A stretch of 14,519 nucleotides of DNA from a virus, in UHGV virus genome UHGV-0203503. One strand, written 5' to 3'. This document shows positions 186-13,479 of this stretch, in pieces. Both the position numbers and the translations under genes were made by a program. The notes beneath the pieces were generated by a model that was given only the letters and a program-made list of their open reading frames with translations, had not been told where the DNA came from and searched no databases. Within the stretch, counting starts at the first letter, position 1. The number at the start of each line of letters is the position of its first letter.

Positions 186-229
186 TCTGCCTCCTGTTTA
201 AATAATGATTAATTCTATCACAACAGGTA

Positions 230-260
230 TTGACGTAGATTGAGTGGTGGTGCATAGTAT
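230..260 (+). promoter_or_regulatory. sigma70-like promoter P1 for the plus operon 292-2066
   Basis: -35 TTGACG 230-235, 17-nt spacer, -10 CATAGT 253-258 (or TAGTAT 255-260); ~30 nt leader to ATG 292. Carries an imperfect inverted repeat TTGACGTAGAT (230-240) / ATCTACATCAA (260-270). Confidence 0.4.
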
Positions 261-291
261 CTACATCAAGTGATGAGTGAGGAGAAATGAA

Positions 292-705
292 ATGGAAAAT
301 AAGCTGATTGGCAAGAATATCGTCGAAGTTAAAATTGCAGAAGATAAGCTGGCTATGCTTTTTGTTTGTGATAATGGCGAGGAACTTGTTGTTCGCGTTG
401 ATGCTGATTGCTGTTCGTATACATGGATTGAATCAGTTGAAATGCCTGCGCTAGGGTTTCCATTTACTATTATTGAGTGTGAGGATTTGGCAATGCCTGA
501 CTTGGGTGATATGCCAGGTTGTGATTACGTTCAATACTACGGAGCGAAAATCACAACCAACAAAGGTGACATGGTGATTGACTATCGCAATGATTCAAAC
601 GGATATTATGGCGGAGAAATCGTCTGGCCGGGTGAAGGTTTTTACGGCGGGGTGTTCGGACAAAACGAGTCCAACATGGACTGGAGAGATATTGAGGAAT
701 CGTAA
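292..705 (+). CDS. Hypothetical protein, 137 aa
   Basis: ORF-track frame 277-705 begins at GTG; first ATG at 292 with GGAG 281-284 at 7 nt spacing. No recognised motif. Confidence 0.5.
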   Translation: MENKLIGKNIVEVKIAEDKLAMLFVCDNGEELVVRVDADCCSYTWIESVEMPALGFPFTIIECEDLAMPDLGDMPGCDYVQYYGAKITTNKGDMVIDYRNDSNGYYGGEIVWPGEGFYGGVFGQNESNMDWRDIEES

Positions 706-707
706 TC

Positions 708-851
708 ATGGTAATAGTCAAATTCAAAGAAAACGGACGCTGCGGAGTGTTCAGCCTTGAGCAAATCAAAATCCGCCCGTGCGGTAAAGTGGTTGCGCCA
801 TTTGGTCTGGTGCAAATGCGTGAGTGCGAAACTGTTGAATATATTAAGTGA
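708..851 (+). CDS. Small hypothetical protein, 47 aa (below ORF-track cutoff)
   Basis: ATG 708 three nt after the upstream stop; GAGGAA 694-699 as RBS; fills the 706-856 gap between track ORFs; translation MVIVKFKENGRCGVFSLEQIKIRPCGKVVAPFGLVQMRECETVEYIK. Confidence 0.3.
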   Translation: MVIVKFKENGRCGVFSLEQIKIRPCGKVVAPFGLVQMRECETVEYIK

Positions 852-856
852 GGTTG

Positions 857-1150
857 ATGATGGAAGAATTTAAAGGCACGAGTGGAAAATGGGGGGTTGT
901 TGCTGGTGATGATAACGCACCTGATGTTATCTCTGATATTGGTGTTGAGGTTGCATTCACTCCAACATATAACGGTGATAAAGCAGAACAATGGCATAAC
1001 GCAAAATTAATCGCATCATCGCCAGAGTTGCTCTCAGCACTCCAGCAACTACTGGAAATCTACGACGACAACTCCGGCAAAGTCTGGACAACATCAAGCA
1101 AGCGTCGCGCTCTGGATAATGCGCGTGCAGCGGTTAACAAGGCGTTGTGA
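857..1150 (+). CDS. Hypothetical protein, ~97 aa
   Basis: Track ORF 848-1150 starts at GTG; in-frame ATGs at 857 and 860 follow GAGG 850-853; the upstream small ORF stop (849-851) overlaps. Confidence 0.45.
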   Translation: MMEEFKGTSGKWGVVAGDDNAPDVISDIGVEVAFTPTYNGDKAEQWHNAKLIASSPELLSALQQLLEIYDDNSGKVWTTSSKRRALDNARAAVNKAL

Positions 1151-1159
1151 GAAACAAAA

Positions 1160-1753
1160 ATGAAACTCATCGACCTGTTAGTTCAAGAATTACCTAAGCG
1201 TGGTGGGTGGCCTAATGGTGCAGTATGCGCAACACAAGATAAAGATGGAGAAGTTTACTTCTCTGAAGGCGAAACACCTGAATTTGGCTTGGTGGCCTGG
1301 CATGATGGAGACTGGTGCGGAAATGAGTTTCACACAATTACGGCCACCGATTACGACACTGCCATCATTACTCGCGCCCAGTACGAATCAGCACTCGCAG
1401 CATCGCAAAAGCCAGCATGGAACGGCGAAGGTCTGCCTCCAGTTGGGTGTGATTGTGAATGTCATGTCGATGAAGGAATAATTCATTGCGTTGTGGTTGG
1501 TTATGATTTTGATGGCAAAGCTGTTGTGATGCGCAATGTTCCAGTGCGCAAATACTTCTCAATTCAGGCTAACTCAGGGCGCATAAGACCACTACGCACA
1601 GAAAAAGAGCGCAAGCGTGATGAGGCAGCAGAAGCCATTGGCTTTTATATGCCGGAATTTATTACCGATACGCCAAATGAGTTTTACCACGCCAAAAAGA
1701 TTTACGACGCCATCGCAGCAGGCAAGATTCCCGGAGTGAAACTGGAGGATTAA
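1160..1753 (+). CDS. Hypothetical protein, 197 aa
   Basis: ATG 1160, 9 nt after the upstream stop; long ORF in operon context; no recognised motif. Confidence 0.5.
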   Translation: MKLIDLLVQELPKRGGWPNGAVCATQDKDGEVYFSEGETPEFGLVAWHDGDWCGNEFHTITATDYDTAIITRAQYESALAASQKPAWNGEGLPPVGCDCECHVDEGIIHCVVVGYDFDGKAVVMRNVPVRKYFSIQANSGRIRPLRTEKERKRDEAAEAIGFYMPEFITDTPNEFYHAKKIYDAIAAGKIPGVKLED

Positions 1754-1755
1754 TT

Positions 1756-1989
1756 ATGTTTCCTGAGAAAATAAATATTGCTATAACACACTGGCAGACC
1801 TCTGACGGCAATGTGTTTACTGACCAGTTCGCTGCAAAGATTCATCAGGCCGTTATTGATGGTGATGCGCGAATTTGCCTAGAATGTAATGGCACTGGAA
1901 TGGTTGACCCATATTGCGATGGGAGGACTGAGTTTCCATGCCAAGAGTGCACTGGTGGTTACCAATTTAAAAATGAAACGTGGAAATGA
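1756..1989 (+). CDS. Small Cys-rich (zinc-ribbon-like) protein, 77 aa
   Basis: GGAGG 1744-1748 seven nt before ATG 1756; Cys spacing ICLECNG...YCDG...FPCQECTGG (CxxC...C...CxxC) suggests a metal-binding ribbon. Confidence 0.5.
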   Translation: MFPEKINIAITHWQTSDGNVFTDQFAAKIHQAVIDGDARICLECNGTGMVDPYCDGRTEFPCQECTGGYQFKNETWK

Positions 1990-2066
1990 TTAAGACAATA
2001 TTCAGCGTCGTAGAGATATTGTGCTATGCGATAATAATATTCGTTCTGTGTATGCTCATAGGATAA
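1986..2066 (+). CDS. Possible 26-aa hydrophobic peptide, start overlapping the upstream stop (ATGA)
   Basis: ATG 1986-1988 overlaps TGA 1987-1989; translation MIKTIFSVVEILCYAIIIFVLCMLIG; ends 5 nt before terminator stem. Could be chance in AT-rich sequence. Confidence 0.2.
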   Translation: MIKTIFSVVEILCYAIIIFVLCMLIG

Positions 2067-2071
2067 AACCA

Positions 2072-2098
2072 AGCCCTCACTTAGAGGGCTTTTTGTTT
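2072..2098. terminator. Bidirectional intrinsic terminator between convergent transcription units
   Basis: Stem AGCCCTC (2072-2078) / GAGGGCT (2084-2090), 5-nt loop, TTTTTGTTT on the plus side; minus-side tail TTGGTTTTA. Overlaps the stop of the head-morphogenesis gene. Confidence 0.55.
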
Positions 2099-3027
2099 GC
2101 TGATTGCCATGCCTCTCGCTGCTTATCAAGTCTTTCCTGCGATGACTCAAGAATAACTGGCTTTCCATCCATTAGCAGTGTTGGTACTTGTGCGCAATGA
2201 CAATTCCTTCGGTTGGCAACTTCACTATAGAACGTGTCGATTTCTTCTGGCGTGTAAAACCTCCCGTGTCTCGCCGCGTGAGTATGGCGGGTCGTGCGCA
2301 TTAATGCCGATTGCCACAGCATTACCGTCTCAATACCTAACTCTTCGCGCGCTTCAATGACTTCTCTCCTGTTTGCCTGCCGCAGCGTTCCGGTGATTTC
2401 TGTTTGCGCCAACTGTTTTGCGTAACTGTGAGACACATCGATACGCTTAACGATGTCGGCTTCAACATCACGAGGATTAGCGCCTCGAGCAATGCCTTCC
2501 ATAATGACAGATGCCAGTTGCTGACGGGAATAATCACTCAATCCGCGCCAGTCTGAATATCCTTGCGTGTACGCTAGCTGGAGTCGATTCAGATAAGGCT
2601 CACTGTAGAGTATCGCGGCAATCGGCCTCTGCTCGGCATAAACCGGAGACAGGCTTGATAGCTCTGAGTTAGCCTTCTGCGTGCCAGCATGATGCGCATC
2701 ACCAATGAACACATTAGCCCACATCCTGCCGTGACCGAAGTCGTCACCTTCAAGCAGAATCTCGTCAATCAGCGCCTGCAACTCATCCATGAAAGTGGCA
2801 GCCCGCGCACTACTAAAATCGTAGAAATACAGACCGCTTGATTCTGCGTTGGTCTGGCTGCTCGGAATGGTGCGAAACAACTCAAGCGCACGAGTCCTGA
2901 GTTGTTTGTATTTGCGCGTTATCACCTTATCCATCTTCGACAGTCGCGTTGCAGCGCCTAACGGGTCGGTCAGGCTCTGCGATATGCGCGGTTGTGGCAA
3001 CCTTGCATTAAACCGGAGTATTTTCAT
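2077..3027 (-). CDS. Phage head morphogenesis / minor capsid protein (Mu F-like, SPP1 gp7 family), ~316 aa
   Basis: Lies immediately downstream of the portal gene on the same strand; C-terminal region ([18 protein letters not shown]...) resembles Mu-F-like proteins from memory. Start set at internal ATG 3027 (GGAAGA RBS) because the track ORF start 3111 lies inside the portal gene. Confidence 0.6.
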
Positions 3028-4420
3028 TTTCGTCTTCCGGCGGCGTGTCTTCGCGATAATTTTCGTCCAGCTCAATCGGCTCCATACCCACCATGCCGCG
3101 AGCCTCATCAACAGTCAGCAATGCAGATTGACCAGCATCAAAGAACGACTTGTTCGCAGTTGCGAGCTTAGACAGCAATTCGGCCTTATCCAGCTCTGAT
3201 GGAGCCAGCAGGTCATCCCACTTAACCTTGTAGCCGTTTGCCGGGGCTTTATCGACAATGCCGAACTGAATCATGCGCTCAACGAACATTGAGATGACGT
3301 AATCAACCCATGTTTCGCGGCGCTGTTTTGCGGTCATCGCCTCCTGCATCTTGTCCTCGTCGCTCGCAAGGCGTCCGGTTTGCTGGCCAAAAATAACGGT
3401 GAACGGAAGTGCCATTGATGCGGCGAACTGGTTGGCAGCAACTTCCCATGTTGGTTTCGGGTCGGCTGGTGTCACAGCGAGAACTTTTGCATCCGCGCCC
3501 ATTGTGAACATGGCTGCGTCAATCCCGGAGTTCAGCGCATCAATGTTCTCATTCATGATGTCGGTAAGCTCTTCAATATCGACACCCATTGACTGAGCTA
3601 GGCTTGCTGGCGTTACGTTATCCTTCGTGTAGTTAACCGCCAGTTGGCGGCTAGCATTCTTCAGGAAGCCCTCTGCGGAGCTACCGGAAACCTTAGCCAT
3701 GTCGATAAGGCTGTTGTAGCCAGCACGCAGCATCGGGATGCCACTGAACATACTACCGTCAAAACTACCCTCAGCCAGAATGATGATGCGGTCTGGGTGA
3801 ATCTGTACGGAACGCTCAGGCTTGCCATTGCTGTCGAAATCTTCCACGGCGCTTTCCTGGTATTCGTACATCTCAGGCATACCGTAGTCTTCGCTGGTTT
3901 CGTCGTTATTCCACGCGCTGACGCGGAGCTGCTCCTCCCATACAGGAATAAAGCGAACGATGGATTTATCTTTAATGCGGCGGGTTTTGGTGATGTCTAC
4001 AGGCTCACTCCACTGCTTGCCGTCGCGGATTTGCAGGATAACGGCGGAATAGCGGTTGATGGCGTTGCGCTTGTCAGCCTCCTTGATGAACGGGTAGGCG
4101 CGCTTCATCATGCCGTTGATGGACAACTCCCACGACGTTGAGTTCTTATCATCCTCTCCATCTTCAACCACTTCAGGGTATTTCTGCCAGCATTTATTAA
4201 TAATGCGGTTAATACCAGCGGCGGCAGCTGGGTGTCGTTCATAGGCATAACGGAACATCTCAGCGGTAATTTCCTGCGGGTAGCCCAGCTCCTTCCACAT
4301 GAACTCACGCTTCTGGTCAAGATTCTTCCCGCCAGCACAAAGCCTCTGCTGCTGAATTGCCCGGTTATTGTTCGCTACGCGGTCGCGTATATAGGCGTTT
4401 AATGCATCAATTTTTGACAT
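3008..4420 (-). CDS. Phage portal protein, 470 aa
   Basis: 470-aa ORF between terminase large subunit and Mu-F-like gene in the conserved order; acidic C-terminus. Assignment is by position and size, not by a recognised motif. Confidence 0.6.
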
Positions 4421-4431
4421 ATGTCACCAAT

Positions 4432-4458
4432 AAAAAATCCCATCACGTTGGATGGGAT
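4432..4458 (-). terminator. Intrinsic terminator (minus strand) between the small-gene cassette and the portal gene
   Basis: Stem ATCCCATC (4437-4444) / GATGGGAT (4451-4458), 6-nt loop, followed on the minus strand by TTTTT (complement of A-run 4432-4436). Sits 11 nt upstream of the portal ATG. Confidence 0.5.
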
Positions 4459-4493
4459 TATAACACGAGCTTGCAGTGGCTATGGTTGATGGC

Positions 4494-4724
4494 TTATTCT
4501 CTCCGTGATGGTATTGCAATCATCGGTTGCGTTTGTCTTTGCATGATAGATAATAGCTCGCCCTTGTAATGTTCTGTAATTTCATTTTGCCCTTTCATGT
4601 AAATCAAGATGGCCTCCTGTTCGGTGACAATTCCTTGCTTAAACAAGGTTATTACTTTCCTTGCCATAGTATCGCAAAGAGATAATTCTTCAAGGTATTG
4701 AATCGGCGTTTCGCAGTTATCCAT
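4494..4724 (-). CDS. Hypothetical protein, 76 aa
   Basis: ATG 4724-4722 overlaps upstream stop (TGATG); track ORF 4494-4727 begins at GTG. Confidence 0.4.
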   Translation of the reverse strand: MDNCETPIQYLEELSLCDTMARKVITLFKQGIVTEQEAILIYMKGQNEITEHYKGELLSIMQRQTQPMIAIPSRRE

Positions 4725-4909
4725 CACTCCACCTTTTCCAGTTTATCAATAACAATATCGAACCCTTGGGATTGGAATATGGCGGCATTCTCGTTCGCCA
4801 TAAATACTTCGAAAGCATGAACTGCGTTTGACGCAGCTATCACCATAGACATTTTTGCGGCAACTTCACCACCACCAAGCACTTCAGCATGAATAAAATA
4901 AACGCTCAT
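4724..4909 (-). CDS. Hypothetical protein, 61 aa
   Basis: ATG 4909-4907 overlaps upstream stop (TGATG); translationally coupled chain. Confidence 0.4.
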   Translation of the reverse strand: MSVYFIHAEVLGGGEVAAKMSMVIAASNAVHAFEVFMANENAAIFQSQGFDIVIDKLEKVE

Positions 4910-5097
4910 CACTCAATCTCCTCACCATTAACCCAGCGTTGCAGGACTTCGATTAGCTGCGCGGCTTGCTGTTTGTCGATGCCAATAGAGTTAACATCAT
5001 CGCCTTCACGGAATGAAGTAAGCATAATGATAGGGTAATCACCAAAACTATGACTAACTTGCAGTTCATAGCAATTTTTTGTTTCACCAATAATCAT
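4909..5097 (-). CDS. Hypothetical protein, 62 aa
   Basis: ATG 5097-5095 preceded by GAGG at 7 nt spacing, inside the repeated element TTGAGGTGATGTGATG. Confidence 0.4.
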   Translation of the reverse strand: MIIGETKNCYELQVSHSFGDYPIIMLTSFREGDDVNSIGIDKQQAAQLIEVLQRWVNGEEIE

Positions 5098-5152
5098 CAC
5101 ATCACCTCAACAAAGTTCACCATCAGTTACCACCAACAACTTCTGCCATAAT

Positions 5153-5356
5153 TTATTTCTGAACATGATTAATCCACCATGCGGCAATTGCTGAGAAAAT
5201 CCACAAGCCGATAACAAGCCTGAAAACCTGCCAATTCAGTATGTCATCAATACTTGGCGCCTCCCATCTAATCAGCCAGATAAGCGGGAAAGCAAGCGCC
5301 AGTGCAATGGTGTACTTAATACCAATAAGAAGAAAATCTCTTAGGAAGCCTCTCAT
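5153..5356 (-). CDS. Small membrane protein, 67 aa, two predicted transmembrane helices
   Basis: Hydrophobic stretches IKYTIALALAFPLIWLI and VFRLVIGLWIFSAIAAWWI; ATG 5356 preceded by the same GAGGTGATGTG element. Confidence 0.45.
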   Translation of the reverse strand: MRGFLRDFLLIGIKYTIALALAFPLIWLIRWEAPSIDDILNWQVFRLVIGLWIFSAIAAWWINHVQK

Positions 5357-5365
5357 CACATCACC

Positions 5366-5560
5366 TCAACCAATCGGAAACCACTTATCAATGACATCAT
5401 GGAATTTTTGCATAACCTTTGCCTGCCAAAATTCAAGCCACTCAAATAAATTTCTTGCACCAGAAAAGAAAACCCACAATAACCACACAGGAACAAAAAA
5501 TGGCAGTAAAGCAATCCTTCCGATCTTGCTTCTGTTGCTCATCCTGCTTATCTTAAGCAT
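5366..5560 (-). CDS. Small membrane protein, 64 aa, one predicted transmembrane helix
   Basis: Hydrophobic stretch IALLPFFVPVWLLWVFF; ATG 5560 directly after upstream stop, preceded by GAGGGTGATGTG. Confidence 0.45.
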   Translation of the reverse strand: MLKISRMSNRSKIGRIALLPFFVPVWLLWVFFSGARNLFEWLEFWQAKVMQKFHDVIDKWFPIG

Positions 5561-5564
5561 CACA

Positions 5565-5771
5565 TCACCCTCTCAAAAAATCATTCTTGCAGCAGATACC
5601 CTTGTACCCGCGCTTCTCCTGCAGATTAACGAAAACATCATCCAGAACGCGCAGCAGGAAATCCTCGTCAATATCATACCGACGGCAAATCACCTCATCA
5701 GGTACACCAGCCCGCGCCAGTGAATAAACCTGCTCTTTTTCCTCCTGTGTGAATCCTGCATAGCTGCGCAT
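5565..5771 (-). CDS. Hypothetical protein, 68 aa (first gene of the minus cassette)
   Basis: ATG 5771 with GGAG at 8 nt spacing; ~24 nt downstream of predicted promoter P2b. Confidence 0.45.
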   Translation of the reverse strand: MRSYAGFTQEEKEQVYSLARAGVPDEVICRRYDIDEDFLLRVLDDVFVNLQEKRGYKGICCKNDFLRG

Positions 5772-5801
5772 AGTGATATCTCCGATAAGCCTGATGTAGA
5801 T

Positions 5802-5830
5802 ATACTATGCGCTCGGTGTAGATTGGTCAA
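5802..5830 (-). promoter_or_regulatory. sigma70-like promoter P2b for the minus six-gene cassette
   Basis: On the minus strand: -35 TTGACC (complement of 5825-5830), 17-nt spacer, -10 TAGTAT (complement of 5802-5807), then ATCTACATCA as in P1. Confidence 0.4.
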
Positions 5831-5868
5831 GTGTGGCGATGAGGATTTATCGACATTAACAGTAAATG

Positions 5869-5897
5869 TTGACGTAGATATGTTGGTGACGTAGAAT
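5869..5897 (+). promoter_or_regulatory. Near-consensus sigma70 promoter P2 for the plus two-gene cassette
   Basis: -35 TTGACG 5869-5874, exactly 17 nt spacer, -10 TAGAAT 5892-5897; divergent from P2b. Confidence 0.5.
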
Positions 5898-5930
5898 CAT
5901 CTTATCGAAAAGAGATTAAGGAACAAGAGA

Positions 5931-6086
5931 ATGTTTGAGACTAAAAAAGAATGCGAAGCGTATATTGCCGAAACTTATGGTGCTGACTACGTTAAATTTG
6001 GCATCGTTACCGCCCAGAAAGTCGGCCCAACAATCGCCAAGATGCTTGGTATTAAAGAAGGTTACTACCCATCAAATGCCTACTAA
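5931..6086 (+). CDS. Small hypothetical protein, 51 aa (below ORF-track cutoff)
   Basis: ATG 5931 preceded by AAGGAA (5918-5923); translation MFETKKECEAYIAETYGADYVKFGIVTAQKVGPTIAKMLGIKEGYYPSNAY; alternative reading to the TTG-initiated 117-aa track ORF. Confidence 0.4.
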   Translation: MFETKKECEAYIAETYGADYVKFGIVTAQKVGPTIAKMLGIKEGYYPSNAY

Positions 6087-6090
6087 TTAC

Positions 6091-6288
6091 ATGCCGAGAT
6101 GCCTTCGTGAAATACCGAAGGCAAAAGTGAAGCCAAGAAATCAAGCAATAAAAGAGGCAAAGATTGAGGCTTTCAATATTGCCATTTCGATAATAAAAGA
6201 GAGATGCAGAGATGAAAAGTCTGAACGCGTTAAATCAAACATGTATGCAGCTGTGAGTGATATATCAAGATTGAGAGATGAGCTTTAA
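6091..6288 (+). CDS. Small hypothetical protein, 65 aa
   Basis: ATG 6091 in the frame of track ORF 5935-6288; basic, helix-like sequence (MPRCLREIPKAKVKPRNQAIKEAKIEAF...); RBS weak, start uncertain (an in-frame ATG at 6076 is also possible). Confidence 0.3.
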   Translation: MPRCLREIPKAKVKPRNQAIKEAKIEAFNIAISIIKERCRDEKSERVKSNMYAAVSDISRLRDEL

Positions 6289-6317
6289 GCCCTCATTTGA
6301 GGGCTTTATTTTTATCG
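6288..6317 (+). terminator. Intrinsic terminator of the plus cassette, lying 7 nt from the terL stop
   Basis: Stem AGCCCTC (6288-6294) / GAGGGCT (6299-6305), loop ATTT, followed by TTATTTTTAT on plus; no T-tract on the minus side. Confidence 0.55.
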
Positions 6318-7736
6318 CCTGCGTCGGATTAGCATTCCGCTTCCGCGCTGGACGATGTGGTCATTTAGTGCGTAACGAACGGCATCCCAGAAGTGGTTAA
6401 ATGCATCGACAATATCAGTCAGCACATTCCCCGTCAGCTTATCGACCTTGTAGCTGTACATCGTTGCTTCATTCTGCATTTCCTTGCATCGCTCGTGGAT
6501 GATGATGCTGTCACATCCGCGCAGCCACGTGACGCCATCCTCAACGCTTCCCGGCCATTTAGTGCACGGGTGAATATCGAATCCAGAGCGCTTGATGTGA
6601 CTGATAGTCTCAGGTCGAGCGCAGTCTGCATACCATCGCGCGCGCTTAGCCATAGGGAATGATTGCTCCATCGCAGCTGGCGTATCGGTAATCTCAAGGC
6701 CAACCTTGCCATACTCTCGATTAATATAAATGTTGCGCCGTCCATCTGGTAATTCTTCGATATAAACCTCAACCATCGCGGTAGGATCGGTGGAAAACCC
6801 GAAGTCCATCCCGAAGTATGGGCCATGCCATTCAGGTTTGACTTCAAAGTCATCAACGCGCCATTTGCCACCGAATACCTGCTCGTCGCTTCGCTTGTTA
6901 AAGGCTCCCATCCAAATCCAGCGGTAACGGTCGTAATCAGTTCGTTTCATTTGCTCCATGGCGGATGGCAGCGGTGTATCCCAGAACCACGGGTTGTCTG
7001 AATAGTTACATTCGATAATCAGAATTTCATCATTTTCGAATATTCCATCAACCATCTGTGAGTGATAAGGAGCAATCCAGTTTTTCCATGTCGGGTCTGT
7101 TTCCTTGTTGGGGTTAAATGAGCACCACAGCTCGGAATTGGCGGCGCGGATGGTAGGCACGAGAATGTCCCAGCTTGTCTGGCTGACGTTCTCCGCTTCC
7201 TCTACCCAACCGACGGTAATGCCAGCAAAGCCCTTAACGGTTGTCTGATTGCGATACAACCCCTTAAAGCGAAACTTTGCTTTGGTCTTCTTGTGTGTTA
7301 TCTCGTTGTTGATAACGCGAAACTCAGCTGACTCGCCTTTGCGGGCTATCTCATCAACAAGCTCCTGATAGCTTGAGTCTTCAATGGATTGCTGAATCTC
7401 ACGGAAGCAGGCAAAGCGGTCGGGTCGAAACCTTGCGCGCTCAGTAAGGATGGTGATAATTGTTCTCGTTTTCCCTGACCCACGCCCACCATAGACAAAC
7501 TTGAAACGTTTGGGGTATAGCAGACGTTCCAGCTTTGCCGGAATGAGGTGGTCGGCATGAGTGGTTGCATTGGTCACATCATCAACGCCAGTAGCGGTCA
7601 TCCTTAACCGCTTGATGACGTTTTTCTGCATGTCGCAGATACCAAAGATAGCTGATTCTGCGACATCTGTCATTGCATCATCAATCTGCGCTTCCAGCTT
7701 TTCTATTGCCAGCGCGGAGAGGCGTTTACGAGCCAT
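6312..7736 (-). CDS. terL: Phage terminase large subunit, ~474 aa
   Basis: Walker A VYGGRGSGKT, Walker B-like ITVGWVEEAE, nuclease-domain-like GMDFGFSTDP. Start set at ATG 7736 (GGAG RBS, 11-nt overlap with the terS stop) rather than track start 7805. Confidence 0.88.
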   Translation of the reverse strand: MARKRLSALAIEKLEAQIDDAMTDVAESAIFGICDMQKNVIKRLRMTATGVDDVTNATTHADHLIPAKLERLLYPKRFKFVYGGRGSGKTRTIITILTERARFRPDRFACFREIQQSIEDSSYQELVDEIARKGESAEFRVINNEITHKKTKAKFRFKGLYRNQTTVKGFAGITVGWVEEAENVSQTSWDILVPTIRAANSELWCSFNPNKETDPTWKNWIAPYHSQMVDGIFENDEILIIECNYSDNPWFWDTPLPSAMEQMKRTDYDRYRWIWMGAFNKRSDEQVFGGKWRVDDFEVKPEWHGPYFGMDFGFSTDPTAMVEVYIEELPDGRRNIYINREYGKVGLEITDTPAAMEQSFPMAKRARWYADCARPETISHIKRSGFDIHPCTKWPGSVEDGVTWLRGCDSIIIHERCKEMQNEATMYSYKVDKLTGNVLTDIVDAFNHFWDAVRYALNDHIVQRGSGMLIRRRR

Positions 7737-8172
7737 TCTGCTGCTCCAGCAATTTCTCCAGTCGTTCAAGGCGCGCGGCGAGTTCGGTAATTTCCTGAAT
7801 ATCAAGGCCAGACTTGATAATGTCTGCCATCATCTTTCCGATGTCGGCAGGAACAACGCCAGTGGATACACCCTTGATGATTGCGTCCATTTTTTGCACC
7901 GGGGTTCCGTCAGCAGGGAAGTCGAACTCCACAGGAGGAGCTACAGGCTTAGGAATTGGGTTGAGCCTCAGGAATATCTCTCGAAGCATACTGGTAGCCT
8001 GAGCGTCTTCGCATGTCATCGCCTTATTGATGTAATAAGTGACGAATTCAATCTCACTCATCGGTGTATTCGCAGCACGAAGCGCCTCAAGCAGCACAGT
8101 GCGATAGCTCTTTCCGCGCGGAGGTGGTTGATTTGTAGATGAAAATTTGTGTTTTGGATTTGGGTTTGCCAT
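7726..8172 (-). CDS. terS: Phage terminase small subunit (probable), 148 aa
   Basis: Immediately upstream of and overlapping terL; basic N-terminus and helical C-terminus; start at ATG 8172 (track ORF extends to 8247 but first ATG is at codon 26). Confidence 0.6.
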   Translation of the reverse strand: MANPNPKHKFSSTNQPPPRGKSYRTVLLEALRAANTPMSEIEFVTYYINKAMTCEDAQATSMLREIFLRLNPIPKPVAPPVEFDFPADGTPVQKMDAIIKGVSTGVVPADIGKMMADIIKSGLDIQEITELAARLERLEKLLEQQNGS

Positions 8173-8229
8173 GTCTATTGTGTTCTTTGAGTAACTCACA
8201 TACGTTAATTTTAACACATAGACGTAGAT

Positions 8230-8255
8230 AAAAAAGAACCCGCACAAGGCGGGTT
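8230..8255 (-). terminator. Intrinsic terminator (minus strand) ending the small-gene operon before terS
   Basis: Stem AACCCGC (8237-8243) / GCGGGTT (8249-8255), 5-nt loop, followed on minus by CTTTTTT (complement of 8230-8236). Confidence 0.5.
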
Positions 8256-8299
8256 AAGGTTGGGTGATGATATGAGTGAAAGTAGTGGTGGTTATGTGC

Positions 8300-8473
8300 T
8301 TATTGTACACCATCATTATCACGCTTGCCAGCATGGCACCATGCGTTTTCATCACGAGTCTGCACATGAACGATTTCAAGCGCATCAGGGAATGTCTTTG
8401 CTATCTTCGCGATAAAATCGTCCAATTCGTGCTGTTTGGCGAGTTGCCAGACTTTCTGTTTAGTGGTTTGCAT
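8300..8473 (-). CDS. Hypothetical protein, 57 aa
   Basis: ATG 8473 with GAGGG 9 nt upstream; part of track ORF 8300-8539; last gene before the terminator. Confidence 0.3.
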   Translation of the reverse strand: MQTTKQKVWQLAKQHELDDFIAKIAKTFPDALEIVHVQTRDENAWCHAGKRDNDGVQ

Positions 8474-8639
8474 TTGCAAAAGCCCTCGTAGAGCACATGT
8501 ATTTAATCTCATGCACACCATTGTCTGGCACAACCTCAATGCGATTGCTGAGCTGCACCATCATGTAATGGCATGTCATCATACCGTCCCAGTATCGTTT
8601 CCACATAAATTCCATTGCGGCGTTGATATCGTCAAACAT
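8460..8639 (-). CDS. Hypothetical protein, 59 aa (below ORF-track cutoff)
   Basis: ATG 8639-8637 overlaps the end of the upstream gene (ATGTTTGA); translation MFDDINAAMEFMWKRYWDGMMTCHYMMVQLSNRIEVVPDNGVHEIKYMCSTRAFANANH. Confidence 0.3.
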   Translation of the reverse strand: MFDDINAAMEFMWKRYWDGMMTCHYMMVQLSNRIEVVPDNGVHEIKYMCSTRAFANANH

Positions 8640-8952
8640 AATGCTGCCACCCCCTTTTAACCCATGCTACGCGATTTTTGTTGGTGTGAATCAGTCCTCT
8701 TGCGCTTTCTGTTAAATATGGTAGTTCTCTGTTGTTAAACGGATAATCACCATTAAGTCCAGCTTTAATGAATTGCTGCCGCATTAACTTTCTTGCCTGC
8801 TCCCTTTCCTTTGGTGTTGACCCCATCACCTTTAAATGCAAGGTTAAGGAAACACAAATACCGCAATTACGACTAAATGGTTTACCTTCTGGCGCTCCAG
8901 CATCAATCCAGTCGGAGTATACTTCATAAAAATCAGCTAATTGATTAAACAT
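8632..8952 (-). CDS. Hypothetical protein, 106 aa
   Basis: ATG 8952 with AGGAG 9 nt upstream; track ORF 8632-8970. Confidence 0.5.
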   Translation of the reverse strand: MFNQLADFYEVYSDWIDAGAPEGKPFSRNCGICVSLTLHLKVMGSTPKEREQARKLMRQQFIKAGLNGDYPFNNRELPYLTESARGLIHTNKNRVAWVKRGWQHYV

Positions 8953-9052
8953 AATGCACAACTCCTGCAATAGCCGCTACCAGTGCAAGCACATAAACAG
9001 CAAGGAAAATTTTAGCGCCAGTGGTGTAGTTGCGTCGTTGGTACTTGGTCAT
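8945..9052 (-). CDS. Possible 35-aa single-helix membrane peptide
   Basis: ATG 9052-9050 overlaps upstream TGA (ATGA); translation MTKYQRRNYTTGAKIFLAVYVLALVAAIAGVVHYV; its stop overlaps the next gene start. Confidence 0.2.
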   Translation of the reverse strand: MTKYQRRNYTTGAKIFLAVYVLALVAAIAGVVHYV

Positions 9053-9246
9053 TCGTCGTTCTCCCGCCCTAGATATGAGAGTGATGTGATTGCCACTGCC
9101 GTGAACCTGTCACTGCCAATCAAACTCTTCAGCACCTCGACATCTTCTTGCGATTTAATTCTGAACGTCAACTGAGCTATGCCAGCCACTGATGACGCGC
9201 CTCCTGCAGATATTGCATTGTAGTGATAAATATATCTATTGCTCAT
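9049..9246 (-). CDS. Hypothetical protein, 65 aa
   Basis: ATG 9246 with GGAG 8 nt upstream; track ORF 9049-9252. Confidence 0.4.
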   Translation of the reverse strand: MSNRYIYHYNAISAGGASSVAGIAQLTFRIKSQEDVEVLKSLIGSDRFTAVAITSLSYLGRENDE

Positions 9247-9309
9247 CCACACATCTCCACTAAAGCGTGCGCCACATAGAGCGCACTGATAATTAACATG
9301 AACGGGTAG

Positions 9310-9699
9310 CTATTCACTTTTAGCCAGGCTTTCGAATTGCTGTGCTATGGTGTCAAACTGAACCATCTTGACAACATCGTCGAACATGACAAATTCTCCT
9401 TCATGGTCTTCACTCATGTCAGCACCGTAATCCTCCCGCTTCGGTGCTGCTGCGATAATTTCACCCTCGTATCCGATTCCAATGCTCCTCGATTCACCTA
9501 TGTAGACTACCGGACATCCGACGAGATAATCTGAGTGCGAAGCAAGCTTACCATTCAAAATTTTACCGTCATTCATCCTTACATAAACATCCGACATCAA
9601 CGGAAGCGCCATTATTTGCTCATAGGTTAGCTTTACTGGCTTGGCGGAGTTCATTACCGGCATGTACTTAGGCGGCTTGCGCCCGTTCACCCTGCTCAT
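9310..9699 (-). CDS. Hypothetical protein, 129 aa
   Basis: ATG 9699 preceded by AGGAGG (4 nt spacing); acidic C-terminal half. Confidence 0.55.
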   Translation of the reverse strand: MSRVNGRKPPKYMPVMNSAKPVKLTYEQIMALPLMSDVYVRMNDGKILNGKLASHSDYLVGCPVVYIGESRSIGIGYEGEIIAAAPKREDYGADMSEDHEGEFVMFDDVVKMVQFDTIAQQFESLAKSE

Positions 9700-9841
9700 T
9701 CGACCTCCTGCTGTGGTGCTTCTGCGAGCATTGTCACAAGAGCCATGAAATCAGCATACTTAACATATAAACCAGAAATGTCATCGCCATCTGTATTAAG
9801 CTACGCGTCGTTGCAGTTTGCTGCGTATGTTTTAACTTCAC

Positions 9842-10075
9842 TCATACCCTAACCCCCATAATTTCTTCGTAATAGCCATCTTCTTCAAACTCAATCTTTG
9901 CGATTTTGAGCGCATCCTCATCTGTGATATCAATCGCTTTGAATTTGCATTTTGACAGCACTATGCAGCCTGACAGGATTAACCACTTATTCCACAAGCG
10001 CACTCGCCTGATTGTCCTGCTCGAATACATCTTGTTCTGCACAAACCAGAACTCGTATGTTTTTACTTTCGCCAT
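9842..10075 (-). CDS. Hypothetical protein, 77 aa
   Basis: ATG 10075; GGTGA upstream; track ORF. Confidence 0.45.
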   Translation of the reverse strand: MAKVKTYEFWFVQNKMYSSRTIRRVRLWNKWLILSGCIVLSKCKFKAIDITDEDALKIAKIEFEEDGYYEEIMGVRV

Positions 10076-10111
10076 ATCATCACCATTAAAAATAAGAGTG
10101 CTGAATCGTGT

Positions 10112-10294
10112 TCAAAATACGATAATCAGCTCATCCATCACTCTGTGCTTACCTTCACCATTAAACACGCGCACAACTCGATTTACGCGGATAGATTCCA
10201 TTGCATTGCGTGCCTGCTTGCTCATAAAGTTCTGCGCGCCAACGTGACCGAGTTCCGGTTCCAGCTTCTCGCGACGATAGATAGTCTTTGCCAT
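10112..10294 (-). CDS. Hypothetical protein, 60 aa
   Basis: ATG 10294 with AGGAG at 6 nt spacing. Confidence 0.45.
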   Translation of the reverse strand: MAKTIYRREKLEPELGHVGAQNFMSKQARNAMESIRVNRVVRVFNGEGKHRVMDELIIVF

Positions 10295-10297
10295 TTG

Positions 10298-10393
10298 TTA
10301 CTCCTTATACCCTGATTTAGAAACTGCCACTGCGATAATGATGGATGCCACGATAACCAGACTGGCGACAAGCTCGAATGTTGCGCCTGTCAT
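10298..10393 (-). CDS. Possible 30-aa single-helix membrane peptide
   Basis: ATG 10393-10391 overlaps upstream TGA; translation MTGATFELVASLVIVASIIIAVAVSKSGYKE; stop overlaps the RBS of the next gene. Confidence 0.2.
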   Translation of the reverse strand: MTGATFELVASLVIVASIIIAVAVSKSGYKE

Positions 10394-10575
10394 TTCTTCG
10401 AAGCCTTATATTCATCTTCTGTCAACGCGTATGCCTCGCAAATCATGTTTGCCGCATCAATAATGACATTTGAGCGCATGTCAGCAGGCAGGCTTGGAAC
10501 CTGTTGTGACAATGCCATGCATATATCGCTGAATAACTTCATCTGGTCGATGCTGTACGTGCTTTCTTCTTTCAT
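10390..10575 (-). CDS. Hypothetical protein, 61 aa (first gene of the minus operon)
   Basis: ATG 10575 with GAGGGTGA upstream; ~24 nt downstream of predicted promoter P4. Confidence 0.45.
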   Translation of the reverse strand: MKEESTYSIDQMKLFSDICMALSQQVPSLPADMRSNVIIDAANMICEAYALTEDEYKASKK

Positions 10576-10605
10576 CTCTTCACCCTCGTTTGTTTCGATT
10601 AGTTC

Positions 10606-10634
10606 AATCTACATCAGTTGTGATTCTACGTCAA
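10606..10634 (-). promoter_or_regulatory. sigma70-like promoter P4 for the minus operon 10575 to 8300
   Basis: Minus strand reads TTGACG (complement of 10629-10634), 17-nt spacer, TAGATT (complement of 10606-11); same architecture as P2. Confidence 0.45.
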
Positions 10635-10640
10635 CAGCAA

Positions 10641-11025
10641 GTTACCCAAATAACGATAATTCCGGTAACCAGGAGCATAAAAACCGGTAACTGTTATAAA
10701 TCAATTACTTACTATTCATTCATGCCATTTTACCATCAAAAAAGTTACCGGAGTTACCGGTCGCCCGGTAACTTGAAACCCGCATGCATCAAGGCTCTCA
10801 GGAGAGTTACCGGATTTACCGGGTAACTCCTTACATATATAAAAAGTGTTGAATTTCTTATTATGTATATGATTTATAAGCGTTTTATTCAATTTTGATA
10901 CAAATTCTCATTTTTGAAATTTTTATAAGCTCATATGCAAAAAATCCGGTAACTACGGTAACCCTATAGTTATCAATAGCTTACGTCGGTAACCGCTCGG
11001 TAAAAACCCGGTAACTCCGGTAACT
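10641..11025. repeat. Iteron-like array: about 14 copies of CCGGTAAC / GTTACCGG flanking an AT-rich core (10828-10944)
   Basis: Exact CCGGTAAC at 10662, 10684, 10765, 10946, 11008, 11017; exact GTTACCGG at 10744, 10753, 10806; one-mismatch copies at 10815, 10955, 10986, 10997; palindrome GTTACCGGtcgcCCGGTAAC 10753-10772; IHF-like TATCAAtagcTTA 10971-10983. Confidence 0.7.
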
Positions 11026-11065
11026 ACTGTAAAGATGCGTAAGTAAGCTCATTATCTTGCTGTCG

Positions 11066-11094
11066 TTGACGTGTACATAATATTCATGTATATT
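11066..11094 (+). promoter_or_regulatory. Near-consensus sigma70 promoter P5 for the plus operon 11120-13784
   Basis: -35 TTGACG 11066-11071, 17-nt spacer, -10 TATATT 11089-11094; ~25 nt leader to AGGAGG and ATG 11120. Confidence 0.5.
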
Positions 11095-11119: not shown

Positions 11120-11398
11120 ATGTACCCAGATGGCACTAAACTAATGTTTGCATACGAGCTGTTATCTTCAATGAAATCTGGTGAACTGGTTGGTATTCAC
11201 TTCGAGAATGAATACTCAAGCGAAATCATCAAAGGAGAAAAGGAAAATTGCCGCTCCGTGGTTATTGATGAAAAGTACCGAATGACGCACAACATGTTCA
11301 GGTCTTACTGCACCAGAATAGCCAATGAACAAGGCATGGTTATAAAAACAAAAACCAGTGAAAGCAAAAAATTCATGTATATCTGGAGAGTCCTGTGA
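11120..11398 (+). CDS. Hypothetical protein, 92 aa
   Basis: AGGAGG 11109-11114 five nt before ATG 11120; stop overlaps the next start. Confidence 0.5.
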   Translation: MYPDGTKLMFAYELLSSMKSGELVGIHFENEYSSEIIKGEKENCRSVVIDEKYRMTHNMFRSYCTRIANEQGMVIKTKTSESKKFMYIWRVL

Positions 11399-13026
11399 TG
11401 ACTGATTCAAAGAAAATCATTGAACTAAAGGAATCTCTGAAGCCAACAGGTAAGCCTGATTCTGGAAATCCACTTGATGAAATTGACGTGCAAGAATTCC
11501 GAGAAGAATACAAAATCCCGCCTGGCTCTCTTGGTGAATTCATGTGCGAGATAGAGAATCATTTTGAAAATCGCGAAGAAGGAGAGGTTTACAGATTGCC
11601 GGGTGCTATCGCTCTTGCTCAAGTGATGGCTGGAAGATACATAATTGGCCCAAGCGCAAAAAACAAGTGTGCCACGGGGACATTTATTGTTGGTCGCTCT
11701 GGCGCAGGTAAGGGTGCTCCATCTGATTTTGTTAAGGCTTACTCAGAGAATCTTGGAATCACTCCACGCGTATCAAAAAGCACAGTAACTTCATTGCGAC
11801 AAATCAAAGAGCGCCTTATTGAGGCTGATGGTTTCTTGCTTTATATCGCAGATGACTGCCCTGAACATCTTCAGGCTTGGTCAGATACGCGATCACCTCT
11901 TGGTGAAACGGCATCATGGTTCAGGACGTCCATTAGTGGCGACTGGTTCCCTGAGTCTCCTGTTGTTACATTGTTTCAGGAGAAGCTGGCCAGCGCTCAA
12001 AACCCGAAGTTAATACTCTCTGCAGCGCAGGCTCAGGGGTGGATGATACCTCGCATCGGCGAATCTGATGGCGCTATAGATTATCGTCGGCTTGCAAAAA
12101 TGAACCATGACATTGGGAGAAGATTAAATCACGCCATGCAATGTTATGACCTGTGCATTAACGAGAAGGGAATACAGAACGTAAGGTTCATTCCGTTCAT
12201 AACCGTGACCCCAGAGCAGGGAATTGCAACAGTACGGAGATGGGAAAAGGATGGTGGCATGGGGAGATCTCTTTTCATTAAAGGTCATGAACACATGCCG
12301 GAACTTAAGAATACTCCTGACATGGAAATCAATAAAACAATAATAAACGAATGGAAACCAAGAATTCCAGGTGGTTTTTTTAATGTGGAATATGCCAATG
12401 ATGGTGTTTCGAAATACTATGAGATGTTGCGCAGGCGCATAGACAAGTCAAGCAACATTCCAGGTGTAATTGGTAGCGTCGGCCCTCGCTCTGCTCAGAT
12501 GGTTATTGAGCTTGCTACTCTTTGTGCATTTGCTGATTTATCATCGCGCAATGGCATGACTCCGCAGGTAAAGGAATGCCATATTGAATGGGCATATGCA
12601 ACCGTAATGAACAGCATGTACGACCTGCGTGATTATCTGGAGGGAGAAGCAGAGTTTGATGGCCTTGAAAACACTGAGTGGGACAACATTGTTATGAAGG
12701 TTAAAAAATGCATTGAATCAAAGGCTTTCGCTGAAAAGCCTTATATTTCAGTTGTCAAAAACAAACTTTGTCGCGACAGAATCAGTAAGATAATTTCCGC
12801 TGCCGATTCAAACTCAATTCAGGTTACGCCGGATAAATTTACTTACGAGGTCATCATTGCGATATCTGAAAACAGGCATTCACCAATAGAACTCGACCCT
12901 GAGAACCCATCAAACATCCGGCTTTCTGGTGGCGGTTCATGGTCTGGATTGCGCATGAATGCATCAGTCAGGAATATCCTGTCATCAGCAATGAAGCGAA
13001 TGAGATTTATGAGGAACTTGAAATGA
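11398..13026 (+). CDS. Large hypothetical protein, 542 aa, with a glycine-rich loop GRSGAGKG and a hhhhDD motif (FLLYIADD); function unknown
   Basis: Longest ORF in window; ATG 11398 overlaps upstream TGA; GGAG 11384-11387. The glycine-rich loop is not a canonical Walker A (K followed by G, not S/T), so no NTPase call is made. Confidence 0.6.
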   Translation: MTDSKKIIELKESLKPTGKPDSGNPLDEIDVQEFREEYKIPPGSLGEFMCEIENHFENREEGEVYRLPGAIALAQVMAGRYIIGPSAKNKCATGTFIVGRSGAGKGAPSDFVKAYSENLGITPRVSKSTVTSLRQIKERLIEADGFLLYIADDCPEHLQAWSDTRSPLGETASWFRTSISGDWFPESPVVTLFQEKLASAQNPKLILSAAQAQGWMIPRIGESDGAIDYRRLAKMNHDIGRRLNHAMQCYDLCINEKGIQNVRFIPFITVTPEQGIATVRRWEKDGGMGRSLFIKGHEHMPELKNTPDMEINKTIINEWKPRIPGGFFNVEYANDGVSKYYEMLRRRIDKSSNIPGVIGSVGPRSAQMVIELATLCAFADLSSRNGMTPQVKECHIEWAYATVMNSMYDLRDYLEGEAEFDGLENTEWDNIVMKVKKCIESKAFAEKPYISVVKNKLCRDRISKIISAADSNSIQVTPDKFTYEVIIAISENRHSPIELDPENPSNIRLSGGGSWSGLRMNASVRNILSSAMKRMRFMRNLK

Positions 13027-13224: not shown

Positions 13225-13479
13225 ATGGATGTGAAAGATAAAGTTTTATACGTGATGAGAAAGAGGAAATCCATTGAAAAGACGCTTGGGATTTGTCGAA
13301 AGTTCTCCGTTGCTACGTGGAGTTTACGTCTATCGATGGCGAATGAATTTCCTGATGATGAATGGACAGCGGCAAAGTTACGGAAGGTTCTGATTTCTCT
13401 TTGTAAGGATGGTCTTGTGTCAAAGGATTTAAATAACAGTCGCATCGGTAATTCGGTTTGGATTCTGGAGGAAAACTGA
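13225..13479 (+). CDS. Hypothetical protein, 84 aa, possibly a small winged-helix DNA-binding protein
   Basis: GAGGG 13213-13217 seven nt before ATG 13225; basic N-terminus and helix-turn-like segment; the DNA-binding call is a weak impression. Confidence 0.4.
   Translation: MDVKDKVLYVMRKRKSIEKTLGICRKFSVATWSLRLSMANEFPDDEWTAAKLRKVLISLCKDGLVSKDLNNSRIGNSVWILEEN

Follow-up and report, generated by a model that had tools for sequence, protein, structure and literature searches.

A short asymmetric element recurs in the core of the -35/-10 promoters of a Skatevirus/Swiduovirus-group phage and its relatives and may be an operator

The UHGV virus genome UHGV-0203503, a stretch of 14,519 nucleotides (14.5 kb; hereafter the window), contains an asymmetric 11-bp element, TGAYGTAGAWT, that recurs in intergenic DNA and is built into the core of most of its predicted -35/-10 promoters. 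The window derives from a virulent siphophage of the Skatevirus/Swiduovirus group, with Escherichia phage vB_EcoS_swi2 (hereafter swi2) as its best match (91% identity over 70% of the window by BLAST); a Jersey-like (Guernseyvirinae) affiliation, assumed at first, was ruled out by the BLAST matches and by the taxonomy of the swi2 and seszw records. The analysis establishes the motif, the restriction of its copies to core promoters, its phylogenetic footprint, and the existence of two promoter classes. On balance, and with moderate confidence, we lean toward reading the motif as the operator of one trans-acting factor that would occlude the -35/-10 promoters, with the late genes placed on extended -10 promoters; binding, repression, and the identity of the binder are the parts of this reading that we infer.

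The original prediction had described the repeated sequence as a 10-mer, GAYGTAGAWT. Its recurrence is real, and every copy then listed is present to within 1-2 bases, but the length requires amendment: nearly all copies have a T directly in front of the 10-mer, which makes the full element the 11-mer, of which the 10-mer is the visible part. We checked whether the word is any more frequent than base composition predicts and found 8 exact occurrences of GAYGTAGAW in the window against 0.40 expected, a number that none of 200 dinucleotide-preserving shuffles reaches. All eight lie in intergenic DNA, which makes up only 9.2% of the window (binomial P = 5e-9). Allowing at most one mismatch, the 11-mer TGAYGTAGAWT has 7 matches compared with 1.24 expected; a looser search with the 10-mer and one mismatch is less striking (10 matches versus 3.25 expected, with 1 of 200 shuffles reaching 10), and its coding match at 1057-1066 (GTCGTAGATT), which is inside a gene and has its mismatch in the GAY part, is regarded as chance.

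A promoter consensus scan recovered P1, P2, P2b, P4, and P5 where they had originally been placed. The predicted sigma-70 hexamers of P2, P2b, P4, and P5 match at 9-10 of 12 positions with a 17-bp spacer, those of P1 match at 9 of 12, and each of the five promoters is upstream of co-oriented open reading frames (ORFs) with ribosome-binding sites. These predicted promoters are as follows.

230-260, plus strand: P1, TTGACG followed by 17 nucleotides to CATAGT or 19 nucleotides to TAGTAT; drives 289-1989
5802-5830, minus strand: P2b, TTGACC-17-TAGTAT; drives the gene of a 68-residue protein and five more small genes; kept in relatives
5869-5897, plus strand: P2, TTGACG-17-TAGAAT; two same-orientation copies of the motif
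10606-10634, minus strand: P4, TTGACG-17-TAGATT; two same-orientation copies of the motif; drives small accessory genes from 10575 down to 8300
11066-11094, plus strand: P5, TTGACG-17-TATATT; without the motif; drives the replication module at 11120-13026

P5 had been singled out as lacking the motif, and there is indeed no copy at 11066-11094. The copies found in the window are distributed over the other promoters as listed below.

231-241, plus strand: TGACGTAGATT, at about -36/-26 (or -34/-24) of P1, its TGAC forming part of the -35 TTGACG; kept in relatives; also at -36/-26 of the leftward lysis promoter
258-268, minus strand: TGATGTAGATA, reverse relative to P1, at about -9 to +2 (or -7 to +4)
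5792-5802, plus strand: TGATGTAGATA, reverse relative to P2b, at -7 to +4
5814-5824, plus strand: degenerate copy CGGTGTAGATT (cGgTGTAGATT; two mismatches, core GTAGATT intact), reverse, at -29 to -19 in the P2b spacer
5870-5880, plus strand: TGACGTAGATA, in the same orientation as P2, at -34/-24
5887-5897, plus strand: TGACGTAGAAT, 17 bp from the preceding copy, at -17/-7 of P2
8220-8230, plus strand: single copy aGACGTAGATA, reverse, at -29/-19 of the terS extended -10 promoter
10606-10616, minus strand: TGATGTAGATT, at -17/-7 of P4
10623-10633, minus strand: TGACGTAGAAT, at -34/-24 of P4

Copies occupy four positions, -34/-24 and -17/-7 when in the orientation of the promoter and -29/-19 and -7/+4 when reversed, such that every copy overlaps the core promoter (-36 to +4) in one orientation or the other and none occupies the typical position of an upstream activator. 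P1 combines a same-orientation copy at the -35 with a reverse copy over the start site, and P2b has two reverse copies 22 bp apart. The sequence ATCTACATCA, previously noted as common to P1 and P2b, is present in both but does not stand as a separate element, being the reverse complement of the same motif; reading it in reverse adds the copy at 258-268 (minus strand), which had gone uncounted. Relative to TAGTAT, ATCTACATCA has a 2-bp overlap in P1 (CATAGTATCTACATCA) and abuts it in P2b (CATAGTAT ATCTACATCA). The motif does not supply the TGn of an extended -10 element: the TG of TGAYG-TAGAWT falls at -17/-16, and if Y is T, a second TG abuts the hexamer at -14/-13. In both the P1/lysis and the P2b/P2 regions, promoters stand back to back with common motif sites.

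The late operons have a different class of promoter, an extended -10 (TGnTAnWAT) without a -35. The window has four TGnTAnWAT matches, each of them between genes and on the strand that encodes the late genes (P = 7e-5); of the 19 matches in swi2, 10 lie in intergenic DNA (P = 4e-6), 9 of these pointing toward tail, head, portal, terS, or lysis genes. Those in the window are the following.

212-220, minus strand: TGATAGAAT, extended -10 promoter of the leftward lysis genes, lacking a -35; back to back with P1; same layout in swi2 at 27720
4457-4465, minus strand: TGTTATAAT, extended -10 promoter of the late class for the portal and head genes, without the motif
8208-8216, minus strand: TGTTAAAAT, extended -10 promoter for terS and terL
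10727-10735, minus strand: extended -10 match, the fourth in the window

The motif copy at 8220-8230 comes directly after a terminator (8237-8255, minus strand), and an orthologous ATCTACGYC is found at the same place in several lineages. The distance from the motif to the late extended -10 element is not constant (about 3-4, 9-10, and 24-29 bp), a variability that speaks against a strict geometry of activation. At the portal promoter, the -10 (TGTTATAAT) is on the 5' arm of the terminator (4436-4459) that closes the upstream small-gene cassette, a design repeated in swi2 at 31861; judging from this layout, transcripts arriving from upstream would stop at the terminator, and those begun at the portal promoter should lack the full hairpin and read on. 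The genome thus appears to divide its genes between two classes of promoter: accessory, replication, and recombination cassettes are placed under motif-bearing -35/-10 promoters, and late genes under extended -10 promoters. This second class, the reversed copies of the motif, and its genome- and clade-wide scope all go beyond the original prediction.

To establish how widely the motif is distributed, we compared the window with the whole genome of swi2, a genome-reduced mutant of seszw (a phage of the same clade used for genome minimisation; PMC9825161), the distant Klebsiella phage ZCKp20p (terminase 79% identical), and 41 terminase-anchored loci from viral contigs. In swi2, where 9.9% of the genome is intergenic, 19 of the 20 matches with at most one mismatch are intergenic (P = 1.5e-18), and nearly every promoter-holding intergenic region is marked; the seszw mutant has kept its motif-bearing promoters and shows the same intergenic pattern. 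Applying an unbiased, motif-blind comparison of intergenic and coding 7-mers to ZCKp20p (6.4% intergenic) ranks GTAGATT, with 11 intergenic occurrences versus 1 coding, right after a terminator word. In three genomes of different relatedness, the motif is limited throughout to core-promoter DNA between genes, and the earlier proposal of one promoter family is supported. All 41 viral-contig loci carry the motif, with 1-9 matches per 10 kb; none of the three most distant (terminase 64% identical) has an exact copy. In more distant subclades, the copies at the -10 read GTTGGTAGATT or nnAGTAGATT, so the universal core is GTAGATW. The very distant relative L206 has AGTAGATW at intergenic promoters, with 7 of its 9 GTAGAT occurrences being intergenic. 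A search of 185,579 bacterial species genomes for the double-site pattern returned no occurrence.

The conservation of the motif at single-base resolution is apparent from a set of 55 distinct double promoters, orthologous or paralogous, that were collected from relatives and have the form TTGACGTAGAWT-N6-TGAYGTAGAWT. Information content is about 1.8-2 bits at most motif positions and about 0.8-1.2 bits at the degenerate ones, the six bases between the copies carry only 0 to 0.6 bit, and the edges of the motif are sharp. High information is found at -29 to -24 and -17 to -13, outside the sigma-70 hexamers, and the spacer halves of both copies are about as conserved as the hexamers themselves, in line with the conservation beyond the hexamers that had been predicted. 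The conservation of these spacer positions is the main argument that something besides sigma-70 reads the motif, which, as is expected of a repressor operator, is recurrent, overlaps the core promoter, and is conserved past what polymerase needs.

The element is present in the core (about -36 to +4) of essentially every -35/-10 promoter of the phage and of the whole clade. If it is an operator, one sequence-specific trans-acting factor would bind TGAYGTAGAWT. Wherever the element sits, a protein bound to it would cover the -35, the spacer, the -10, or the start site and would thereby compete with RNA polymerase and shut the promoters off together. The predicted outcome is a temporal shut-off of the small-gene cassettes combined with autoregulation of P2b; the late operons (lysis, terS-terL, and portal-head), whose extended -10 promoters lack a -35, would be independent of the occluded elements. 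A separate DNA-binding protein with a repressor role would account for a site that is used in both orientations and always overlaps the core promoter, and the two orientations speak against an element that is simply read by polymerase.

As to what might bind the motif, our tentative first candidate is a 68-residue helix-turn-helix (HTH) protein encoded at 5565-5771; a ParB/KorB-like protein encoded outside the window and a conserved host protein come next, on an equal and slightly lower footing, and what probability remains goes to something else. The 68-residue protein, the first gene product of P2b (minus strand) and a candidate either as binder or as RNA polymerase-directed factor, has a confident three-helix HTH model (AlphaFold; predicted local distance difference test score, 83.6), and the folds closest to this predicted structure are mostly sigma region 4 domains; it is a candidate member of the HTH DNA-binding proteins of sigma region 4 / LuxR-GerE type. 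We found no sequence relatives of it in Pfam or PDB. In a set of 1.84 billion proteins, only 17 clusters belong to its family, in which isoelectric points range from 4.6 to 9.3. It is encoded in virtually all relatives (206 phage records), is 96-100% identical among close relatives whose terminases are 83-98% identical, and is kept in all listed genome-reduced seszw mutants, in which neighbouring genes are deleted (from the annotation of one mutant; PMC9825161). The gene adjoins the densest motif cluster, behind the two-copy promoter P2b. In L206, a TTGACA-17-TATATA promoter precedes the gene for the homologue, and downstream of its -10 is a copy of AGTAGAT in reverse orientation.

The ParB/KorB-like candidate corresponds to swi2 gp77, passes the Pfam thresholds for HTH_ParB and KorB, and is universal in the clade. 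A comparison of three subclades (swi2, the Klebsiella group, and C2) shows the same HTH sequence in all of them, but the HTH is altered in L206, where the motif is kept. The sites of ParB/KorB-type proteins (parS/OB) are repeated palindromes of 13-16 bp, a description that the asymmetric motif does not fit, and a search for palindromes of 10-14 bp repeated at least three times found none in swi2 or ZCKp20p and a single one, of 10 bp in 3 copies, in seszw_260L. Escherichia phage ep3 (locus L123) encodes a ParB-like homologue (50% identical) and no homologue of the 68-residue protein; its 42 kb contain a single GTAGAT but six copies of a palindrome, ACAATSATTGT (at 1469, 4739, 23314, 33462, 37340, and 39278), that looks like a set of parS/OB-type sites. 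The patterns in ep3 and L206 and the results of the palindrome search lean slightly toward the 68-residue protein or a host factor without deciding the matter. Across the subclades and distant homologues, no covariation was detected between motif variants and the candidate recognition helices, and the candidates were not told apart; the test is without power because the core motif never changes. That the core stays constant with both phage candidates at 36-42% identity leaves room for a host factor. Among the consensus sites of E. coli regulators, those of MetJ, DnaA, Fur, TrpR, Lrp, and NarL and the RfaH ops element are not known to resemble the motif convincingly. An 84-residue ORF at 13225-13479 (PHROG 2814), which by eye resembles a winged-helix protein, was rejected as the binder: it is present in only 2 of 41 related loci, and so sporadic an accessory gene cannot serve a universal motif.

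Several observations weigh against the operator reading or against its first candidate. The core GTAGAT is unchanged in L206, in which the 68-residue homologue is only 36% identical, the ParB-like protein is only 42% identical, and the putative recognition helices of both are altered; phage regulators and their operators usually drift together, and the constancy of the core would favour a conserved host partner or RNA polymerase itself. Paired copies stand at varying distances (10, 17, 22, 27, and 31 bp) that point to no single geometry of an oligomer, and TAGAWT itself constitutes the -10 of many promoters, so that part of the conservation there is explained by sigma-70. Helix 3 of the 68-residue protein of the window has a net charge of -3 (with an isoelectric point of 5.0 for the protein), which is unusual for a DNA-reading helix. 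Distant homologues of this protein (about 30-36% identity) are encoded directly upstream of portal/MuF-like genes in L204, L206, and L208, and also in L203 and L209, and a morphogenetic or packaging role would also fit. Nor did the literature searched yield binding or expression data for members of the clade.

A first alternative, which we judge unlikely though worth weighing, dispenses with a separate regulator: the motif would be a promoter-family signature read by the host RNA polymerase holoenzyme, in which TTGAC would act as the -35 and G-TAGATW, with its upstream context, would be a favoured -10, and extra copies would be vestiges of overlapping or alternative promoters or would tune promoter strength, open-complex stability, or promoter escape. 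The motif does contain -35-like (TGAC) and -10-like (TAGAWT) pieces, its two commonest arrangements supply exactly these elements at a 17-bp spacing, and a core that is invariant over deep phage divergence is what a conserved host polymerase would impose. However, the conserved positions at -29 to -24 and -17 to -13 are outside the hexamers and out of the TGn register of an extended -10, and the reverse copies at -29/-19 and -7/+4 are unable to act as hexamers and have no partner hexamer on the other strand. A polymerase-read signature also sits poorly with the single copy upstream of the terS extended -10 promoter, and selection by sigma-70 alone would yield a TATAAT-like variety of sequences rather than a fixed TAGAWT.

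Less probable again is an early-to-late switch in which the 68-residue protein, as a sigma-region-4-like factor, is directed at polymerase and disables the -35-dependent promoters, leaving the late extended -10 promoters active; its target would be RNA polymerase (e.g., the beta flap) or region 4 of sigma-70, and the motif would either be read by another protein or help to recruit the modified polymerase. This possibility draws on the clear separation of two promoter classes (the small-gene and DNA-metabolism cassettes stand behind -35/-10 promoters, and all late operons are preceded by extended -10 promoters that lack a -35) and on the sigma region 4 folds and acidic helix 3 of the protein, but by itself it leaves an 11-bp conservation in both orientations inside promoters unexplained. 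In a more speculative variant, to which we give little credence, the 68-residue protein would be a free-standing mimic of sigma region 4 that replaces, or docks beside, region 4 of sigma-70 on the host RNA polymerase and itself reads GTAGATW. Were that the case, one small protein and one motif of 7-11 bp would run the whole temporal programme, from the shut-off of -35 promoters to the motif-flanked late promoters, and the polymerase would be made phage specific, a new form of sigma appropriation in common enterobacterial therapy and biocontrol phages. Finally, we consider it very improbable that the promoter sequences are homology patches for gene-cassette exchange, with their conservation a by-product of recombination: the cassettes after P1, P2, and P4 are highly mosaic between relatives and are framed by conserved promoters and terminators, but a unit of 11 bp flanked by freely varying bases is not long enough for homologous exchange, and sharp edges and fixed promoter-relative positions indicate sequence-specific recognition.

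Among known systems, two come closest to the proposed operator in logic, the sites of the C1 repressor in phage P1 and, in RK2, the KorA/KorB regulon; neither is related to it in sequence. The P1 C1 operator is a dispersed, asymmetric 17-bp site (ATTGCTCTAATAAATTT). As in P1, the site is short and asymmetric and is present in many genome copies, single or paired and in either orientation, that overlap many core promoters, and one protein would control a scattered regulon. Operator sequence and protein are unrelated, however, and whereas P1 is temperate and C1 maintains its lysogeny, this phage is virulent and has only candidates for a binder. The operators of KorA and KorB of RK2/IncP are palindromes, unlike the asymmetric motif, and no sequence homology to KorA was detected. 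The division into early -35/-10 promoters and later extended -10 promoters that need no -35 recalls the programmes of Thermus phage P23-45 (gp39/gp76) and T4 (AsiA), in which the switch is made by a polymerase-binding protein that disables -35 recognition; these programmes, however, require no common operator inside the early promoters, and no homologues of gp39, gp76, or AsiA were detected. Back-to-back promoters with common sites, at which one protein can repress one promoter and spare or help the other, are also known from phi29 p4 and lambda CI/Cro; operators there are palindromic or of fixed geometry, unlike the variable spacing between the motif and the late element.

The literature searched contains no description of the motif string or of promoters or regulators of this clade, whose transcription programme appears to be undescribed there. 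About 200 isolates of Skatevirus, Swiduovirus, and Roufvirus-like phages, infecting Salmonella, E. coli, Shigella, and Klebsiella, have been sequenced, and such phages are widely proposed for biocontrol and therapy. One short element on nearly all -35/-10 promoters, together with a separate late extended -10 class, amounts to a testable map of the programme, and the promoter cassettes and the control of timing offer an engineering handle, with two concrete candidate regulators. The one puzzling point is that the core stays invariant although both phage candidates have diverged, which may point to a partner in the host.

The genes and other features of the window are arranged as follows.

to 185, leftward: end of the lysis cluster
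289-1989, rightward: small-gene cassette driven by P1, closed by the terminator at 2071-2091
4420-2077, leftward: head-morphogenesis and portal genes
5771-4494, leftward: six-small-gene cassette driven by P2b, closed by a terminator
5931-6288, rightward: two-gene cassette
8172-6312, leftward: terL and terS
10575-8300, leftward: small accessory gene cassette driven by P4, closed by a terminator
10640-11040: repeat-rich region between P4 and P5
11120-13026 and beyond, rightward: replication module driven by P5

Searches of Pfam and PHROGs assigned a function to none of the small proteins of the window; those at 8300-8470, 10112-10294, and 289-705 match the recently defined Pfam families of unknown function DUF7334, DUF7540, and DUF7448. 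Genes 52-59, between a P4-type promoter and terS, are missing from the genome-reduced seszw mutant, and this cassette is therefore dispensable.

The region between P4 and P5 (10640-11040) contains 9 exact copies of the repeat CCGGTAAC / AGTTACCGG, in both orientations and including several inverted pairs. Relatives with the window-type replication module (11120-13026) have 9-12 copies of CCGGTAAC and others have 0-2, and the array is probably the replication origin of this module with its iterons. Origin iterons are clustered next to an initiator gene and covary with it, a behaviour that CCGGTAAC shows and that differs from that of the GTAGAT motif, which is dispersed and universal. We considered the CCGGTAAC repeats as a second target of the ParB-like protein and rejected this, as they covary only with the window-type replication module.

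A nearly identical stem (AAGCCCTCA...GAGGGCTT) is found in the terminators at 2071-2091 and 6287-6306; both stand where a rightward cassette of small genes ends and adjoins a late gene read leftward, and the former is scored as a terminator on either strand.

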